Source: Myxococcota bacterium (GTDB lineage: Bacteria; Myxococcota_A; UBA9042; PHBI01). Taken from it: DNA of 64,000 nucleotides. Below are positions 4,565 through 13,618 of the stretch, in pieces. The stretch's first letter is position 1. Each line of letters begins with the position of its first letter. The notes under the pieces were generated by a model, which made no database searches, was not told the DNA's origin, and worked only from the letters and a program-made list of their open reading frames with translations. Location of the stretch: the NCBI GenBank assembly GCA_046351155.1, contig JAXLYZ010000005.1:43254-107253 (forward strand), read 5' to 3'. The position numbers were made by a program, and so were the translations under genes.

Positions 4565-6412
4565 ATGGTTCGGCCACACTTTCTCAAGCTATCGATATTG
4601 CTGGCGTACGCCGCAGCCGGCTGCGGCGGCGACGGCGTGCTCTCCGACGCGACCTCGGGCGATGCGACCTCGGACGGCGACGCGACCTCGGGCGATGCGA
4701 CCTCGGGCGGCGATGCGACCTCGGGCGATGCGACCTCGGGCGATGCGACCTCCGGCGGCGACGCGACCGGCGACGGCGACAGCGCCTCCGGGCCCGACGA
4801 CATCATCCCGGTCGACTGGACGAGCGAGCGCGGCGAGCCCATCGCCAGCCACGTCGTGACGCTGCCGCGCCGCGACATCGTCGCCGCCTTCCCGGGCGGC
4901 GTGCTCACCGGCTACGGCTGCCAGCCCGAGCTCGGCTGCGACTACACCTGGCTCGACGCCACGGGTGCCGAGCAGCGCTCGATCGAGGACCGCTTCCTGA
5001 CCTTCACCAACATCGTGCCGTCGACCGCCGATCAGCTGCTGCTGGTGGCGCGCGAGGCCTACGAGGCCTGCGGACCGGGACCGGACCACACCATCGTCGT
5101 GTCGGGCCAGCTCGAGCTGCGCGACATCGCCAGCGGCGAGGTGAGCTACCAGCAGCCGATCCGCACCAACCTCATCCTCGGCCCGGCCTTCACCGACTCG
5201 GGCGAGTGGTTCCGCGTCATGCAGGCGCCCGAGCGCGCCTGCGGCTCGTCGCTGACCTGGCGCGCGACCGCCGCGCCGCACGACGTCGCGCCGGCCGCCG
5301 CCGCCGACATCATCTACGGCGGCGACCTGCCCGATGGTCGCTGGGTGGGGTGGCGCGGCGAGTCGTTCGGGGTGATCGATCCGCGAACCGACGGTTCTGT
5401 ATTCCAGGCGCTGGGCGACGGCATCGAGGACTGGCTGATCGGCGGCGGCTGGCTGCACGGGCTCGACGGCTACGGCGACTCGACCGAGGTCGACGAGGTG
5501 CTGGCACCGGACGGCGCGCGCTTCAGCATGCCCATCCCCGGCGACGACCTTTGGCGCGGCCAGGCGGCGTGGGGCCGCTGGCTCTTCGCCTGCACCACCG
5601 CCACCGTCGACGGGCTCAACAGCTGCGCCATCTTCGACGTGCGCGGTGAGCTGCCGACGCGCGACATCGGCGTGGCCACGGTGGTGCGCCCGCTGCTGTT
5701 CGTGGGTGGCGGCGAGGCCGCCGTGTTCGCGAGCGCCAGCGACGGCGAGCCGGCGCTGGCCCGGCTCGACCTCGAGAGCGGCGCGGAGACCATCGTGGCC
5801 CACGGCGCGGGCACGCTGCACCCGCTGGGCAACGGCGACGCCGTCGTGTGGGACGCCGGGGCCGACGGCGTGTGGCTCGTCGAGGCGACGCGCGCGGAGC
5901 GGCTGGTCGAGGGTCCGGTGGCGCAGGTGGCGACGCTCAGCGGCGTGCGGCGCGGCGCGCCGCTGCCGGGCGGCCTGCCGCTGGCGCGGCAGCGCTGGCT
6001 CGCGACCATCGTCACGAACGAGGCCGATCAGAGCCATCGCCTGCTGGCCTTCGACCTCGTGTCGCGGCGCCTGGCGACGCTCAGCAGCGACGTCTACTTC
6101 GCGCCGTTCGCGCAGGCGCCCCTCCTGGCCGACACCTGCGGACAGCCGTGGACCGTGCGCGCGGCCGGCGGGCCCATCGACGGTCTGCTGCAGGACCCGC
6201 GCTACCTCTTCTTCGTCGAGAACGGCGCGGACGGCGGCGCGGCGGCGATGTGGATCGCGCCGCTCGACCTCGCGTCGGCGCCGCGGCGGCTGGCCAACGT
6301 CGACCCCGCCGTCTGCCACACCCCGCTCGCCAGCAAGGACGGCACGCTGGTCGCGGTCGACGTCGACGGCGCCGACGGACAGTCCAGTATCTTGACCATC
6401 GGCGCGCCCTGA
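4565..6412 (+). CDS. Lipoprotein with N-terminal (DATSG)n repeat, hypothetical
   Basis: Start MVRPHFLKLSILLAYAAAGCGG (lipobox AAGC), followed by a low-complexity DATSG tandem repeat and then a long globular region. It diverges from the TetR gene. Confidence 0.6.
   Translation: MVRPHFLKLSILLAYAAAGCGGDGVLSDATSGDATSDGDATSGDATSGGDATSGDATSGDATSGGDATGDGDSASGPDDIIPVDWTSERGEPIASHVVTLPRRDIVAAFPGGVLTGYGCQPELGCDYTWLDATGAEQRSIEDRFLTFTNIVPSTADQLLLVAREAYEACGPGPDHTIVVSGQLELRDIASGEVSYQQPIRTNLILGPAFTDSGEWFRVMQAPERACGSSLTWRATAAPHDVAPAAAADIIYGGDLPDGRWVGWRGESFGVIDPRTDGSVFQALGDGIEDWLIGGGWLHGLDGYGDSTEVDEVLAPDGARFSMPIPGDDLWRGQAAWGRWLFACTTATVDGLNSCAIFDVRGELPTRDIGVATVVRPLLFVGGGEAAVFASASDGEPALARLDLESGAETIVAHGAGTLHPLGNGDAVVWDAGADGVWLVEATRAERLVEGPVAQVATLSGVRRGAPLPGGLPLARQRWLATIVTNEADQSHRLLAFDLVSRRLATLSSDVYFAPFAQAPLLADTCGQPWTVRAAGGPIDGLLQDPRYLFFVENGADGGAAAMWIAPLDLASAPRRLANVDPAVCHTPLASKDGTLVAVDVDGADGQSSILTIGAP
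4650..4790. repeat. Coding tandem repeat (15-18 bp units, GATGCGACCTCGGGC, encoding DATSG about 7 times)
   Basis: Directly visible periodicity in the sequence: gcgacctcgggcgatgcgacctcggacggcgacgcgacctcgggc and so on. Confidence 0.6.
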
Positions 6413-6445: not shown

Positions 6446-7384
6446 ATGGCGACCCTCGACCAGCGTGTCCGGCCGGAGATCCTGCGCATCGCGACGCCCT
6501 CGGGCGGGCTCGACCTGGTCGACCTCGTGCTCGAGCGCATCACCTCGCTCGACGAGCTCGAGGCGCTGACGTTCCGCGCGGCGGTGGGCAGCGACGCCGG
6601 CGAGGGCGCGCTGGCGCTGCGCCTGGCCGACGCCCAGCTCTTCGAGGGCCCCGACAGCGACGAGCTGCGCCAGAGCGCCTGGGCCGGGCGCAAGGTGCGG
6701 CGGCCGCGCCCGATCGAGGGCCTGTTCGAGCCGGTGGCCGGCGACTGGGACGCGGCCAGCGCCCTGCCCGATCTGTTCGCCGAGGCGTGGCGCGAGCCCG
6801 AGCGCTGGCGGCGCCTGGCCGAGGACCACGCCGGCGGCCAGCGCTACCTCACGCTGCCCGGCCTCGTGCGGCGCGACGTGGCGCTGCGCATCCTGGCCGA
6901 GGTGCGCGCGCTGTCGATGACGCGGCTCGAGACCGAGCTCGTGCGGGCCGACCGGCACCTGCTCGGCAAGGACGATGTGCCGACCTGGCTCGACCTCCTG
7001 GGCGGCGAGGTGTTCCGCGGGCTGGTCGGCAGCGTGCTCGGGCGCCCGATGCCGCCGGGCCTGGTCGTCAACGCCTGGCGCCTCGGGCGCGGCGACATGA
7101 TGGGCGTGCACCCCGACGGCCGCGGCTACTTCGGCACCGTCTCGCTCGGCCTCGCCGAGGCGTGGTCGGCCTGCGACGGCGGCGCCATCGCCTTCGGGCT
7201 GCCGCGCCCGAGCGGCTTCGAGGTGCGCCAGCGCTGGTTCCCCCACCTCGGTGACGTTTGCCTGTTTGCGCCGGACGGTGACACCTGGCATGCCGTCGAA
7301 GCGGTGCGCACCAAGAAGGTGCGCCTGTCGCTGACGGGGTGGTGGGTATCACCCGAGAACGGGCTCACCCGAGGTGCCTCATGA
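6446..7384 (+). CDS. 2OG-Fe(II) oxygenase superfamily protein (prolyl-4-hydroxylase-like)
   Basis: HxD...H...RxS arrangement: VHPDGRG, then about 50 aa later WHAV, then VRLSLTGWW. The stop overlaps the next start (ATGA at 7381-7384). Confidence 0.55.
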   Translation: MATLDQRVRPEILRIATPSGGLDLVDLVLERITSLDELEALTFRAAVGSDAGEGALALRLADAQLFEGPDSDELRQSAWAGRKVRRPRPIEGLFEPVAGDWDAASALPDLFAEAWREPERWRRLAEDHAGGQRYLTLPGLVRRDVALRILAEVRALSMTRLETELVRADRHLLGKDDVPTWLDLLGGEVFRGLVGSVLGRPMPPGLVVNAWRLGRGDMMGVHPDGRGYFGTVSLGLAEAWSACDGGAIAFGLPRPSGFEVRQRWFPHLGDVCLFAPDGDTWHAVEAVRTKKVRLSLTGWWVSPENGLTRGAS

Positions 7385-8394
7385 AGATCGCGCGATCGCA
7401 ATGGACCTCGCTCCCGACCTCCCTCCGGACCTGGCTGCTCGGCCTCTCCGGCCTGCTCGCGCTGGCCGCAGCGGTCGCCACCGCCGCGTGCGACGACGTC
7501 AACCCGCAGGCGTGCGTCGTCGACGGCGAGAGCCACGCGCTGGGGACGACGTTCCCGTCGAGCGACGGCTGCAACACGTGCGCCTGCGGCCGCGACGGCG
7601 TCGTCAACTGCACGGCGCGCGCGTGCGTCACGACCTGCCAATATAACGGCGCGACGTGGCAGGTGAACGACACCTTCCCGGCCATTGATGGGTGCAACAG
7701 CTGCACCTGTCTGCCGAGCGGCGACGTCGGCTGCACGGTGATGGCGTGCGTGTGCGACCCGTCGGCCGAGTGGTGGCGCGACTACCACTCGACGAGCGCC
7801 TCCGAATGCGCGGCGATGCTCTTCGCGTGCCCGGAGCACACCACCAACTTCTCGAACGAGTGCGGCTGCGGCTGCCAGCAGGAGACCACCTGCGGCAAGG
7901 TGATCGCCTGCGCGCCGCCCGGCTGCGACCCGGCCGCGGCCCAGGCCGAGTGCCCGTTCTCGACCATCGACTCGACGCGCAAGTGCCAGGTCGAGTCGCC
8001 GTGTCCGAGCGACGGCTCGATGTGCTTCGCGCCGGGCGCCAGCATCGGCTGCGGAATATGCCAAAATCCGCCCGAGGAGGAGACCTGCGCCGACGACGCC
8101 GCGTGCGCCGAGGGTTCGATCTGCCAGCCGCTGCAGTGCGCCTGCTCGGGTCAGAAGACGTGCGTGCCGGGCTGCACCGCCAACGGCGACTGCGGGCTCG
8201 GCAAGACGTGCAGCGCCGGCCACCGCTGCGTGCCGGCGGCCTGCGGCACGGGAGCACCCTGCCCGGCGGACTTCGGCTGCGCGGGCGGCGCGTGCGTGCG
8301 GCGCGCGTGCACGACGAGCGCCGCGTGCGACGGCGTGTGCGTCAACGGCCAGTGTTTCGCCGAGCCGGGCTTCTGCTCGTTCCTGCCGCCGTGA
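7381..8394 (+). CDS. Secreted cysteine-rich repeat protein
   Basis: Signal peptide (LLGLSGLLALAAAVATAAC) followed by more than 40 Cys arranged in repeated modules (DGCNTCACGRDGVVNCT, DGCNSCTCLPSGDVGCT). It is translationally coupled to the upstream oxygenase-like gene. Confidence 0.6.
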   Translation: MKIARSQWTSLPTSLRTWLLGLSGLLALAAAVATAACDDVNPQACVVDGESHALGTTFPSSDGCNTCACGRDGVVNCTARACVTTCQYNGATWQVNDTFPAIDGCNSCTCLPSGDVGCTVMACVCDPSAEWWRDYHSTSASECAAMLFACPEHTTNFSNECGCGCQQETTCGKVIACAPPGCDPAAAQAECPFSTIDSTRKCQVESPCPSDGSMCFAPGASIGCGICQNPPEEETCADDAACAEGSICQPLQCACSGQKTCVPGCTANGDCGLGKTCSAGHRCVPAACGTGAPCPADFGCAGGACVRRACTTSAACDGVCVNGQCFAEPGFCSFLPP

Positions 8395-8418: not shown

Positions 8419-9322
8419 TCAGCCGGGGCTGACCTCGGCCGTGCGCGTGATCTCTCCCATCTTGCCCGACTGGTAGTCGCGGATGGCCTGGCGGATCTCG
8501 GACTCGGTGTTCATGACGAACGGACCGTAGCGGGCGATGGGCTCGCCGAGCGGCACGCCGCCCAGCACGAGGGCGCGCGCGTGGCCGTCGTCGGCGGTCC
8601 GGAGGCGCACGGCGTCGCCCGGGCCGAGCAGCGCCATCTGGCCGTCGACGATGGGGGTCGCGCGCTCGCCGACCGTGACGGCGCCGCCGAAGGCGTAGAC
8701 GAGGACGTTGTGATCGGCCGGCAGCGGCAGGGTCAGGTCGGCGCCGCCGTCGAGGGTCCAGTCCTGGTAGACGATGGGGGTGTGGGTGTCGATGACGGCG
8801 TGGACGTCGAAGGCCTGGCCGGCGACGATCTTGCCGCGCGCCTTGCCGTCGGGGCTCTGGGCCACGGGGATCTTGGCGCCGGGGACCTCCTGGTAGCGCG
8901 GCCGGGTCAGCTTGAGGCGCGCCGGCAGGTTCACCCAGATCTGGAAGCCGTGGACGCGGCCGCCTTCGGTCTGCATGCGGCGCGACGGCATCTCGGAGTG
9001 GATGATGCCGCCGCCGGCGGTCATCCACTGCACGTCGCCGCTCCGGAGCGCGCCGCGGTGGCCGGCCGAGTCCTCGTGCTCGAGCTCGCCCTCGAGGATG
9101 TAGCTGACGGTCTCGAAGCCGCGGTGCGGGTGGTCGGGGGCGCCGAGCGCCTCGCCGGGGGCGTAGTCGATGGGGCCCATCTCGTCGAGGAGGAGGAAGG
9201 GGTCGAAGGCGATGAGGCCACCGGTGGGGAGCGGGCGCCGCACGATGAAGCCGCCGCCCTCGGTCTGGCGGTGGGCGGTCACGGTGCGGGCCACTTCGCG
9301 AATCGTCGTCTGCGCGGTCATG
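8419..9322 (-). CDS. Pirin-family protein
   Basis: Pirin N-terminal cupin signature DHPHRGFETVSYILEG and a bicupin length of about 300 aa. The start MTAQTT at 9322 is preceded by GGAGAA. Confidence 0.85.
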
Positions 9323-9429
9323 CGTTCTCCTGCTGCGAGTATGTCATGAACCCTCGCGACCGGTCGTCCTCCAGCTAGCGGCCGGGCGACGAACACGTCG
9401 TTCTCGCCAGGAGAACGCCCGCGGTCTCC

Positions 9430-9504
9430 CCACCTGGGGTCAGACTACTTTTCTCATTTTCCGGGCGCAGAAAATGAGAAAGAAGTAGTCCTGACCCCAG
9501 GTGG
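9430..9504. repeat. 75-bp near-perfect inverted repeat (arms of about 32 bp, AT-rich centre)
   Basis: CCACCTGGGGTCAGACTACTTTTCTCATTTTC cgggcgcag GAAAATGAGAAAGAAGTAGTCCTGACCCCAGGTGG. The arms are complementary except for two single-base indels. It lies in the divergent intergenic region between pirin and the SNF2 pseudogene. Confidence 0.7.
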
Positions 9505-9517
9505 TGGCACCCGCATC

Positions 9518-12500
9518 ATGGTCACACAAGCCGCGGTGTTCGTGTGGGAATCGGATCATGGCGGGGCACTTGCGGCGGGCTCCAACGGTCGGCGCCGGGC
9601 GAAGATCGGCCTCTGCTTGCTCGCGGCTTCCGAGCTTCATCTCGTTGCCGAGCGGGCAACGCTCGGCAACGGTCCGAGGACGGGGTGGACGCCCCGCCTT
9701 CGATCGCCGGCCGTGCACGGGCGGCACGCTCCGCCCGCGAGGCGCCTCGACGCGGCCGAGCTCGCTCGTGCTTGCCGTCGACCGCCGCCGTGGCCATGCG
9801 GCGCCCGCGTGGCGATCGCCCTCAACCTGCCGACGGACCTCCTGCGCGCGCGCTGGTGGTCGCGCCACGTCGCCAACAAGCCGCTGGCCGACCTGCTCGA
9901 CGACCTCGAGCCGACCGAACCCGAAGCCGCTGGTGCTGCTGCGCGACTTCGGCCACCTTCGACCTGGGCCCAGGCCGACCGCGGCGTCGCGCTCGCGTTC
10001 CTCGAGACCCACGCGCTGGCCGAGTGGGTGAAGCGCTGGCGGCCACGCCCCGAGGTGGTGAAGGACGACCACATCGGCGAGCTGCGGCGCGCGCTCCACG
10101 CCGTGGCCGAGCTCTTCGAGGCGCCGCCCGAGGCGGTGCCCTCGGGGCTCACGCTGCTGGCGCCCATCGACCTCGGCATCCTCGCCCACCGGCTGCGCGC
10201 CCAGCCGGCCGAGCACCCGGCGCTGGCGGCCGACATGCCCTACTGGGTCGGCAACATGACGGTGGCGCGCTGGCTCACCACGCTCGATCGGCGCGAGCAG
10301 CGCATCCGAAAAGGACCTTGTCGATCTCGAGCAGCGGCTGGTGGCCGACGCCGCTCTCGGCGAGGCCGGGCTCGAGGCGCGCCGGGCCGCATGGCAGGCG
10401 GCCCCGACGACCCCGGTCACGGCCCACCTGCTGGCCCTGCACGAGCGCCTGGCGGCGAGCGAGCTGGCGTCGGGGCCGGCGCTCTCGGCCACGCCGCTCG
10501 TGGTGTGGGAAGCCCGAGGAGGAGCGCGCCCACCTCGAGCCGGTCGGCGCGCTGGCGTGCCTCCTCGACACCCGTCGCTCGGCCTGGCTCGGAGGTCGGT
10601 CCGAGGCGTCAGCGCCGTGCGGCCGCCGCGGCGACGCGCCGTGCCGCATGAAGCGCCTGCTCGTCGAGCGCGCGCTCGACGCCGTGACGGGCGACGATCT
10701 GGCCCATCGCGCCATGCGCGAGTACCTCGGCGCCGCCCTGGAAGCGGCTCCTGGCGCGCGCCTCGCCGCCGCCGGCCGCGGCCCCGACCTCGACGACGTC
10801 GAGGGGCATGTCGGCTGGGTGGTGCGCCCGCCCGACAGCCTCGTGCCGTCGCGCATCATGCCCAAGAAGGGCGGCGGCCTGAAGTCGCGCACGCTGCAGG
10901 CCGCCGAGCACGCCCAGCTCGAGCAGCGCGGCCACGCCCACGCCATCGCCATGACGCTCGTCGCGCGCGAGTCGCGCTACCACTTCAGCGAGCACGCCCA
11001 GATGACGCTGCAGGGGCTCGCGGTGCTGGCCGGCCAGGCCGGCGTCTACCTGCGCCGCACGCGCGACCTCGTGCCGGTGACGGTCGTGGCCGACTCGCCG
11101 CGCGTCGAGGTCATCCCCGGCGACGACGGCGCGGGCGCGCGCCTGGTGGTGCGCTGGGGCGACGGCAGCGACGGCACCGACGACACCGTGGTCGGCCGGA
11201 TGTCGCCGCCGCACGCCGGCCACTGGGTCATGCGCGTCGACGAGCAACACCTGAAGGTCTACGTTGGACGCTGGAGCGCCGCGGCCGTGCGCGTGTGGCG
11301 CTCGCTCAGCGGCGACGCGCCGGCCATCCCCGAGGAGGCCGCCCCCGAGCTGGCCGAGACGCTGCTCGGGCTGGCCGGGCACGTGGCGGTGAAGAAGGAC
11401 GCGAGCTGGCTCGGCGACGCGCTGGTTCGCCCGGGGCGTGGTCTTCCGGCTGCGCTTCGAGGGCCCGCGCGGCGAGAAGGCGCTCGTCGTCGAAGGTCGC
11501 GCGCGGCCGGTGGCCGAGCTCGGCGCGCTGGTGCCGTTCGATGGCGACAGCGTCATCCCGGTGCGGCGCGACGGGCGCATCGGCCACGTGGTGCGCGACA
11601 GCGAGGCCGAGGCCGCGGCCATCCACGACGTCGCGCGCACGGCCGGGCTGGAGGTCGGGCTGAGCGCCTTCGACTGGCGCGTCGAGGGCCTCGAGCCGGC
11701 CGCCGAGGTGTTGAGCGCGCTCGAGCATGCGCAGCGCGCACGACCTGCTGCTGGCGCTCGAGTGGGGCGGGTACAGGGCCGCGCATCCACCGCGCCACGG
11801 CGTCGACAAGCTGCGGCTGCGCGTCGGTCTGCGCAAGGACTGGCTCGACATCGCCGGCGGCCATGCTCGACGGCGCCGAGCTGCTGCTGCGCGCGCTGCT
11901 CGCGGCGCTGCGCGACGGCAAGCGCTTCGTGGCGCTCGACGACGAGCGCGTCATCGAGATCAACCAGGCGCTGGCGCGCGAGCTGGCGCCGCTGACCGCG
12001 CTCGGCCGCGCGCCGCGCGCCTCCGAGGCCGGTGGACGGCGAGGGCGTGGGCTACGCGCCAGCGCGCTGGCGGCGCCGCTCGTGGCCGAGCTGCAGGCCG
12101 CCGGCGCCACCGTCGATGGCCCGCCCGAGTGGCTGTCGGCGGCGTCCAAGCTCGACGAGGCCGCGGCCCTCGCGGTCGAGGTCCCGCCCGAGCTGGTGGC
12201 CGACCTGCGCCCCTATCAGAAGGAGGGGCTCAGCTGGCTCGCGCGCCTCGCGCACTGGGCGCGCGGCGCGTGCCTGGCCGACGACATGGGCCTCGGCAAG
12301 ACGCTGCAGGCGCTGGCCTTCCTGCTCCTGCGCGCGCCGGTCGGCCGCGCGCTGGTGGTGGCGCCGACCTCGGTGGTGTCGAACCGGCTCCGCGAGGCCG
12401 AGCGCTTCGCGCCGACGCTCGGCGTGGTGCCGACGCGCGCGGCGCGCACATCGCGCTGGTGGACGGCGACGCGCCGGGTGATCGTGACGAGCTGATCTGC

Positions 12501-13618
12501 TGGTGCGCCACCGCGAGCGCTTCGAGGCCGTGAGCTGGGCGACGCTCGTCCTCGACGAGGCGCACGCCATGAAGAACGCCACCACGCGCCGCGCAGGTGG
12601 CGCGCGCCATCCCGGCCGGCTTCGTGCTAGCGCTCACCGGCACGCCGGTCGAGAACCGGCCGAGCGAGCTCTGGAGCTTGTTCCAGGCGGTCGCGCCCCC
12701 GGACTCCTCGGCTCGGCCGAGAGCTTCCGCGACACCTTCGCCGCGCCCATCCAGAACGGCGACTCCGAGGCGCCGCGCCGCCTCGCGCGCCTGGTCCGGC
12801 CGTTCATCCTGCGCCGGAAGAAGGTCGAGGTGGCGGCCGATCTGCCGGCCAAGAGCGAGGTGCGCGTCGATGTCGTGCTCGGCGGCGACGAGCGCGCCCG
12901 CTACGAGAAGGTGCGGAAGGCGGTGCTGGCCGAGCTCGCCAAGGACGACGCCCACCCGCTCGACGGCGGCCGCGGCGTCATCAAGGTCCTGAGCGTGCTC
13001 ACGCGGCTGCGCCAGCTGGCCTGCCATCCGCGCCTCGTCGACCCGCACGCGCCGGCGACCTCGGCCAAGCTCGAGCGCCTGATGGAGCTCGTGCAGGAGC
13101 TCCGCGACGAGGGTCGCCGGACGCTGGTCTTCAGCCAGTTCACCGAGCTCCTCGGCCTGGTCCGGACCGCCTTCGACGAGGCCGGCGTGAGCTACGCCTA
13201 CCTCGACGGATCGACGCCGGCCGAGCGCCGCGAGGTGGAGATCGACACCTTCCAGAGCGGCGCGGTCGACGCCTTCCTGCTGTCGCTGAAGGCGGGCGGC
13301 GTCGGCCTGAACCTCACCGCCGCCAGCGAGGTCATCCACCTCGACCCGTGGTGGAACCCGGCCGCCGAGGACCAGGCCACCGATCGCGCCCACCGCATCG
13401 GCCAGGACAAGCCGGTGACGCTCTACCGGCTGGTGGCGCAGGGCACCATCGAGGAGCAGATCCTCGGCCTGCACGGCGACAAGCGCCGCATGGTGGCGAG
13501 CCTCCTCGAGGGCACCGGCTCGGCCGCCGCGCTCACCGTCGACGAGCTCATGGCGCTCCTCACCGAAGCGCCCGACGACGACGCGCTCAGAGCCCCGACG
13601 GCCCGATCCGCGCCTTGA
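9518..13618 (+). pseudogene. SNF2-family helicase (DEXDc + HELICc, long N-terminal region) disrupted by at least 8 frameshifts
   Basis: Protein-like segments hop between all three plus frames. The hops run: 9518-10320 in frame 2; 10341-10500 in frame 3; 10500-11430 in frame 1; 11438-11720 in frame 2; 11727-11860 in frame 3; 11870-12495 in frame 1, carrying motifs LRPYQKEGLSWL and DDMGLGKTLQ; 12503-12600 in frame 2, carrying the DEAH box LVLDEAHAMKN; 12597-12705 in frame 3, carrying LALTGTPVENRPSELWSLFQ; and 12705-13618 in frame 2, carrying the helicase C motifs FSQFTELL and QATDRAHRIGQ. Confidence 0.7.

Follow-up and report, generated by a model that had tools for sequence, protein, structure and literature searches.

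A 75-bp palindrome between divergent genes of a Myxococcota genome, a probable non-autonomous dimer of TIRYT-type terminal inverted repeats

The near-perfect palindrome at positions 9430-9504 of the 64-kb stretch of Myxococcota DNA analysed here (the window) is very probably a non-autonomous miniature mobile element, a MITE- or REPIN-like dimer of two TIRYT terminal inverted repeats (TIRs) from which the transposase gene is missing. We favor this reading, made by sequence comparison, because the motif and the hairpin form of the palindrome recur around Y1/TIRYT genes in metagenomes. TIRYTs are RAYT-like, IS200-related HUH Y1 tyrosine transposases with a C-terminal helix-turn-helix (TnpA_Y1 subclass 2.1). 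They were named by Di Nocera et al. 2013 for RAYT-like genes flanked by terminal inverted repeats and not by REPs, the whole units being called TIRtrons; many of the flanking TIRs share the sequence GGGGWSAS, and the repeats, which may be single, dimeric or clustered, belong to families of moderate abundance (PMC3733652). Quentin et al. 2018 placed them in subclass 2.1, described the proteins as long and ending in a DnaA_C/HTH-like domain, gave the motif again as GGGG[AT][CG]A[CG], and found no REP-like sequences next to subclass 2.1 genes (PMC6006769). The string "Myxococc" is absent from the main text of both papers.

Results

The palindrome and its motif

The palindrome is 75 bp long and runs in the order CCACCTGGGGTCAGACTACTTTTCTCATTTTC - CGGGCGCA - GAAAATGAGAAAGAAGTAGTCCTGACCCCAGGTGG, with a left arm of 32 nt, a loop of 8 nt and a right arm of 35 nt. 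The original prediction, made from the letters of the window, had described the same near-perfect palindrome with arms of about 32 bp, two 1-nt indels and a loop of 9 nt. The arm length held for the left arm and not for the right, the loop was one of 8 nt, and the 3 additional nucleotides of the right arm gave one 1-nt and one 2-nt bulge in the predicted fold in place of the two single-base indels. Imperfect and weaker pairing extended outward beyond these arms (Table 1). The calculated fold energies were -63.4 kcal/mol (z -10.2) for RNA of the plus strand, -67.3 kcal/mol (z -10.6) for RNA of the minus strand, and -36.6 kcal/mol (z -9.7) for single-stranded DNA, while none of 200 shuffled sequences folded as well. 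The palindrome is real and far beyond chance. The lowest-GC 50-nt stretch of the window also falls within it (0.40 vs 0.745 overall), which bears out the unusual AT-richness that had been remarked on.

Near the outer end of both arms we observed the sequence CTGGGGTCAGR. Its core, GGGGTCAG, is found at 9436-9443 on the plus strand and at 9491-9498 on the minus strand, 6 nt inside the perfect pairing, and fits both published forms of the consensus, GGGGWSAS and GGGG[AT][CG]A[CG]. The bases outside the GGGG/CCCC are inverted complements (CACCT / AGGTG). A single arm is not self-complementary, and the CTAC/GTAG at 9445-9448 and 9486-9489 lies within the long stem and is not an end tag. The palindrome thus has the layout of a head-to-head dimer, with the arms inverted around an 8-nt spacer at an extragenic site.

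No second copy of the palindrome was found in the window using the arms, the inner core or the motif pair, even with 2 mismatches allowed per motif. A search of Rfam 15 assigned the palindrome to no family; the best matches were miRNA hairpin models at 28 bits against cut-offs of 70-97, scores that we discounted because any hairpin would give such noise. No promoter-like or terminator-like site was found at the palindrome, and there was no T tract.

Table 1. Coordinates of the palindrome, its parts and the two neighboring genes (window positions).
Feature	Coordinates	Strand	Remarks
Whole palindrome	9430..9504	.	Probable head-to-head dimer of two TIRYT-type TIRs with no gene between them (MITE/REPIN-like)
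Outer stem, imperfect pairing beyond the perfect arms	9423..9511	.	In metagenomic relatives the outer stem pairs up to ~10 nt
Left motif copy CTGGGGTCAGA, containing GGGGTCAG	9434..9444	+	Fits the published GGGGWSAS
Right motif copy, minus-strand reading CTGGGGTCAGG	9490..9500	-	
Left inner arm, AT-rich, ACTACTTTTCTCATTTTC	9444..9461	+	Lineage-specific; likeness to sampled relatives at chance level
Loop/spacer CGGGCGCA	9462..9469	.	
Right inner arm GAAAATGAGAAAGAAGTAGTC	9470..9489	+	Holds the extra bases behind the 2-nt and 1-nt bulges
Pirin-family gene	8419..9321	-	Start codon 108 bp from the palindrome
SNF2-family helicase pseudogene	9827..13618	+	At least 6 frameshifts; not interrupted by the palindrome

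A family of hairpins with the same outer motif

Metagenome contigs were scanned for the inverted pair CTGGGGTCAG-N30-58-CTGACCCCAG. At least 120 loci were recovered from contigs of GC 0.37 to 0.73, a count that is not significant alone, since in so large a collection a pattern with 20 fixed bases could be matched tens of times by chance. Nearly all of the matches listed were long hairpins laid out like the palindrome at 9430-9504, with an invariant motif between an outer stem that varied and an inner stem that varied but remained self-complementary, and with a loop that differed from one to the next. Across the 242 arms of the matches listed, position 11, directly beside the fixed 10-mer, was a purine in 94%, positions 12-15 were C/T-rich and positions 18-21 T-rich. 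Arm-to-arm complementarity at positions 11-16 was ~85% among these same matches, with all four bases used, and the outer stem was complementary in 59% at position -1, declining to background by -11. Among the matches listed, whose hosts range from 37% to 73% GC, the roughly 10-nt motif was unchanged; the stems outside and inside it varied freely and remained complementary.

Two further properties were measured on the matches listed. The inner stem was less GC-rich than the host in 53 of the 67 high-GC loci, so that AT-richness is a trait of the family, and 45% of the hairpins were not spanned by a long open frame, a fivefold excess over random segments (9%). At six of the loci listed a Y1 transposase gene (IS200-like) was observed within ~100 nt of the hairpin, and in four of these (L103, L109, L059, L076) hairpins stood on both sides of the gene. 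From the position bias, the arm complementarity and the adjoining Y1 genes we conclude that the hairpins are a real family.

The palindrome shares the traits of this family. Both of its arms have the 11-nt motif, correctly oriented and correctly spaced from the outer end, and it has the hairpin form, the AT-rich inner stem and the extragenic site. Its arms also fit the family bias at the positions flanking the 10-mer. We assign it to the family on the strength of the motif, which occurs in each arm at the expected place and in the expected orientation, together with the shared architecture. This agrees with the MITE-like or REP-like element that was among the candidates originally named. The inner arms showed a similarity to the sampled elements that was no better than that of shuffled controls, and an assignment of the inner arm, by eye, to the "AGTnnACTTTTCC" group was dropped when the shuffle control put the similarity at chance level.

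An Rfam search of 15 related hairpin loci gave no match, the loci listed included no close relatives of the source organism, and the outer motif pair had no match in viral contigs. A search of published full text for the motif strings returned only eukaryotic primer matches. Separately, eight loci from soil contigs contained tandem 11-12-nt units in which GGGGTCAGAC was repeated and then followed by its inverse; these runs are clustered arrays and not simple dimers.

The inner core, taken as the inverted pair TTCTCATTTTC-N-GAAAATGAGAA, was found at 25 genome-contig loci, in unrelated taxa with unrelated flanks and with no Y1 genes, which points to chance or to other repeat families, and it had no match in viral contigs. 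Six loci from Coriobacteriaceae / Eggerthellaceae belong to a separate multi-copy palindrome family of ~75 bp, GATGAGAAAAAGGGACGGAGGTTTTTTCTCATTTTCGCGAAAATGAGAAAAAACCTCCGTCCCTTTTTCTCATC, which has a 13-nt AT-rich core in common with the palindrome at 9430-9504 and unrelated outer arms.

Transposases associated with the repeats

The protein of locus L103 contains Pfam Y1_Tnp and a C-terminal HTH. Its best NCBIfam match was the REP-associated tyrosine transposase (NF047646), at 64 bits against a cut-off of 80 bits, and it had no sequence match in the PDB. A profile built from four metagenomic transposases identified at least 7,861 homologues at E of 1e-10 or better, and many of the homologues listed were annotated as "REP element-mobilizing transposase RayT" and carried Y1_Tnp with HTH_23.

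The association was then examined from the protein side, with six TIRYT genes (L149, L151, L152, L153, L155, L156) from different hosts, including an Acetothermia MAG, a Nitrospirota MAG and a Dehalococcoidia genome, at GC 0.44-0.66. All six had a GGGGTCAGG-type repeat ~45-55 nt upstream of the start codon. An inverted copy overlapped the stop codon in five of the six, and no downstream copy was seen for L156, where the gene lies at the contig end. The motif was exactly GGGGTCAGGTCT in four genes, while the upstream copies of the others had diverged (L151, GGGTCAGGTCT; L156, GGGGGTCAAGTCT). Y1 genes next to the repeats were in this way observed in relatives both motif-first (6 loci, 4 of them with hairpins on both sides) and protein-first (6/6 genes). 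No Y1 transposase or TIRYT gene, or remnant of one, was detected in the window itself (tblastn, all E above 0.1).

At four loci (L103 at 7096-7935, L059, L108 and L109) the TIRYT frames run into the downstream repeat, where the motif GGGTCAGACCCC encodes a conserved C-terminal ..LGSDP, which ties the repeat physically to the gene's end. Locus L153 also contains two hairpins, at 5685-5743 and 6991-7044, with the variant motif GGGGACAG / CTGTCCCC, itself compatible with GGGGWSAS. The TIRYT gene a few kb away has repeats of its own that read GGGGTCAGGTCTTG, which suggests that one genome can hold more than one lineage of the repeat.

Neighboring genes

The palindrome is extragenic and lies between divergent genes, with the pirin start on one side, whose ATG is at 9321 and not at 9322 as first given, and the start of SNF2 homology at ~9827 on the other. 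The pirin translation (8419-9321) is 100% identical to the annotated P0001, and its next best relatives are at 80% and 75% identity. Full-length SNF2 homologues align from ~9827 to 13585 in frames 2, 3, 1, 2, 3, 1, 2, and the decay of this gene, already part of the original prediction, was confirmed by at least six frameshifts. The damage indicates either a recent pseudogene, the GC3 signal being still strong, or a locally error-rich assembly. The apparently sole part of the gene that was called in the source annotation is P0241, a 615-aa piece starting at 10648. The divergent setting proposed at the outset therefore stands, while the SNF2 start at 9518 does not: over the ~300 bp that follow the ATG at 9518 the coding signal is weak and homology absent, and this ATG is not an established start because SNF2 homology begins only at ~9827. 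An insertion scar linked to the decay of the SNF2 gene had also been suggested, and we saw nothing to support it. The palindrome lies at least 100-300 bp upstream of the coding region or homology start, neither gene is interrupted by it, and the frameshifts are internal and unrelated to it.

Three pirin orthologue loci (the closest at 80% and 75% identity) had no upstream palindrome and no synteny with the window, and so they provide no conservation evidence in either direction. Between the pirin gene and the palindrome we observed an 11-nt perfect inverted repeat in which 9322-9332 (the pirin Shine-Dalgarno/start region, CAGGAGAACGC) pairs with an anti-SD at 9408-9418. A 126-nt pirin leader was predicted to fold at -55 kcal/mol (z = -2.2), and the inverted repeat may form a translational control hairpin. 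On the other side, at 9643-9671, there is a perfect 12-bp GC-rich stem with a 5-nt loop and no T tract (CGTTGCCGAGCG-GGCAA-CGCTCGGCAACG), located in the poorly coding stretch upstream of the SNF2 homology start.

Discussion

Comparison with known systems

The closest resemblance is to the TIRs of TIRYTs and TIRtrons, which have GGGGWSAS (here GGGGTCAG) near the outer end of each repeat, occur as extragenic dimers away from the transposase gene, and are associated with RAYT-like Y1 HUH proteins with a C-terminal HTH. The palindrome differs in being a lone dimer in 64 kb that contain no TIRYT gene, and in having unique inner arms that are much more AT-rich than its Myxococcota MAG host.

REPINs are REP doublets that form hairpins and are mobilised by RAYTs (Bertels & Rainey 2011, PMC3116915; PMC3337134). 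The palindrome is like them in having two inverted units and a short spacer that together make one long hairpin, presumably a single-stranded DNA substrate, and in its non-autonomous nature, REPINs being regarded as dependent on a single-copy Y1 transposase that acts in trans and whose gene has the repeat on either side. Unlike REPINs, its arms are not short GTAG-tagged palindromes and the conserved tag is CTGGGGTCAGR, while the associated transposases fall below the NCBIfam REP_Tyr_transpos cut-off (64 vs 80 bits) and have an extra HTH domain. Nor does either arm form the short self-palindrome of 20-40 bp, tagged at one end by GTAG or CGTC, that is typical of a classical REP or REPIN. The ends of IS200/IS605 elements and their MITE-like derivatives share the Pfam Y1_Tnp superfamily, the use of DNA secondary structure and the absence of target-site duplications, but they have a short subterminal hairpin at each end and no long TIRs, whereas the ends of the palindrome are inverted copies of each other.

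Several other candidates were set aside. Long hairpins are known in myxobacterial retrons; a retron msd hairpin was rejected after the flanking ORFs gave no Pfam match to reverse transcriptase, and the motif evidence points elsewhere. An intrinsic bidirectional terminator was dismissed given that there is no terminator-like site and both neighboring genes point away from the palindrome, in line with the earlier view that this is not a simple convergent terminator. The palindrome carries a biological family motif and is not known to match any adapter, and we therefore do not regard it as a sequencing adapter or assembly artefact.

Alternative explanations

A palindrome of this kind could also arise in isolation, by a local inverted duplication or template switch, with its likeness to TIRYT repeats a coincidence. 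Its single copy in the window (a lack of other copies was one of the observations that the original prediction had named as together pointing to chance) and inner arms unlike those of any sampled family member are both consistent with such an origin. Against this, both arms have the 11-nt motif, with the proper orientation and the proper spacing from the outer end; by our own estimate from base composition, a random hairpin in the source genome would have GGGGTCAGR rightly placed in about 1 in 1000 cases. The extreme AT content in a 74.5% GC genome further argues for foreign or element-specific sequence rather than copied local DNA, and we consider an isolated origin highly unlikely. A large palindromic operator or cruciform, at which a dimeric regulator would control the pirin and/or SNF2 gene from the divergent promoter, was one of the candidates first proposed. 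The position between divergent genes, the perfect dyad symmetry and the easily melting AT-rich core would suit it, but 75 bp far exceeds the length of an operator and the closest pirin orthologues (80%, 75%) have neither the palindrome upstream nor synteny. Moreover, the inner core occurs nowhere else in the window, its 25 matches in genomes all have unrelated hosts and surroundings, and the outer motif is one by which a transposon family is recognised. This explanation we regard as extremely doubtful.

The very stable RNA fold on both strands would be expected of a structured RNA, either a hairpin in the pirin 5' leader or a small RNA (the latter another of the original candidates), acting on mRNA stability, termination or translation. 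The anti-SD pairing of 9322-9332 with 9408-9418 indicates that the pirin leader may reach close to the palindrome, and REP-type repeats are known to act at the RNA level (PMC3733652). Neither the palindrome nor any of the 15 related loci searched matched an Rfam family, however, the promoter-like and terminator-like sites and T tract that such an RNA might have are missing, and the pirin orthologues do not have the hairpin. We find a structured RNA very improbable as the explanation; being compatible with a mobile origin, an RNA-level role would be a secondary effect and not an alternative origin. The same holds more generally, in that an operator or regulatory-RNA role, for neither of which we found positive support, would be secondary to the mobile origin.

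Elements derived from DDE transposons, such as the TIMEs of Tn3, are likewise short and have two inverted repeats that begin with GGGG. The 38-bp inverted repeat of Tn3 begins GGGGTCTGAC, and we take GGGGTCAGAC to agree with its first ten bases at nine positions. The palindrome differs in having no 5-bp direct target duplication, its flanks (CACCT / AGGTG) being inverted, and no inner TAAG, and pairing runs on outside the GGGG. A Tn3-type origin is largely refuted by the missing target duplication, and it is also contradicted by the relatives with the identical 10-mer, which flank Y1 (HUH) and not DDE transposases; a miniature element from a DDE transposon thus has next to no probability here.

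A model for the origin of the palindrome

In the TIR-dimer reading, two TIRs of a TIRYT transposon (TIRtron) would have been joined head to head with loss of the gene, each arm having CTGGGGTCAGR a few bases in from its outer end and, further in, a relatively AT-rich stem peculiar to its lineage. What has been observed is the structure, the motif and the link between the motif and Y1 genes; from here the steps of movement are modeled on better-known systems. When single-stranded, for example in the lagging-strand template, the element would fold into one long hairpin, as IS200/IS605 and REP/RAYT elements suggest. With its two ends side by side in the hairpin, it would be recognised and cut by a TIRYT acting in trans and encoded, at present or formerly, at another site of the same genome. 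This HUH Y1 enzyme would, on the model of IS200/IS605 and the E. coli RAYT, cut and rejoin the single-stranded DNA and so move the element in trans, and mobilisation of this kind could account for its arrival in the pirin/SNF2 intergenic region. The divergent upstream position is probably where a tolerated insertion happened to land. The palindrome is probably not a designed regulatory site, and an effect on pirin expression is possible.

Implications

The palindrome is most likely an example, in a Myxococcota MAG, of a known and little-studied type of repeat, and its explanation is an ordinary one. It should be annotated as a repeat or mobile element and not as a regulator or gene. The main value of the finding is at the level of the family, in a widespread hairpin form with one motif across very different hosts. 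The matches suggest that TIRYT repeats in the hairpin (dimer) form are spread widely among environmental bacteria and have one invariant 10-mer in common. The REPIN/RAYT idea would thereby reach a further branch of the Y1 transposase superfamily, and experiments would gain a defined substrate. More tentatively, with chances that we put a little short of even, the CTGGGGTCAG hairpins may be a REPIN-like population across many phyla that is served by subclass 2.1 TnpA_Y1 (TIRYT) enzymes, the Myxococcota copy being one member. The literature searched, in which TIRYTs appear only in PMC3733652 and PMC6006769, reports no TIRYT biochemistry. If the hairpins are such a population, TIRYTs would share one universal and easily synthesised DNA substrate, and their biochemistry would be directly testable; it could also be asked by experiment whether they have been domesticated or remain selfish.
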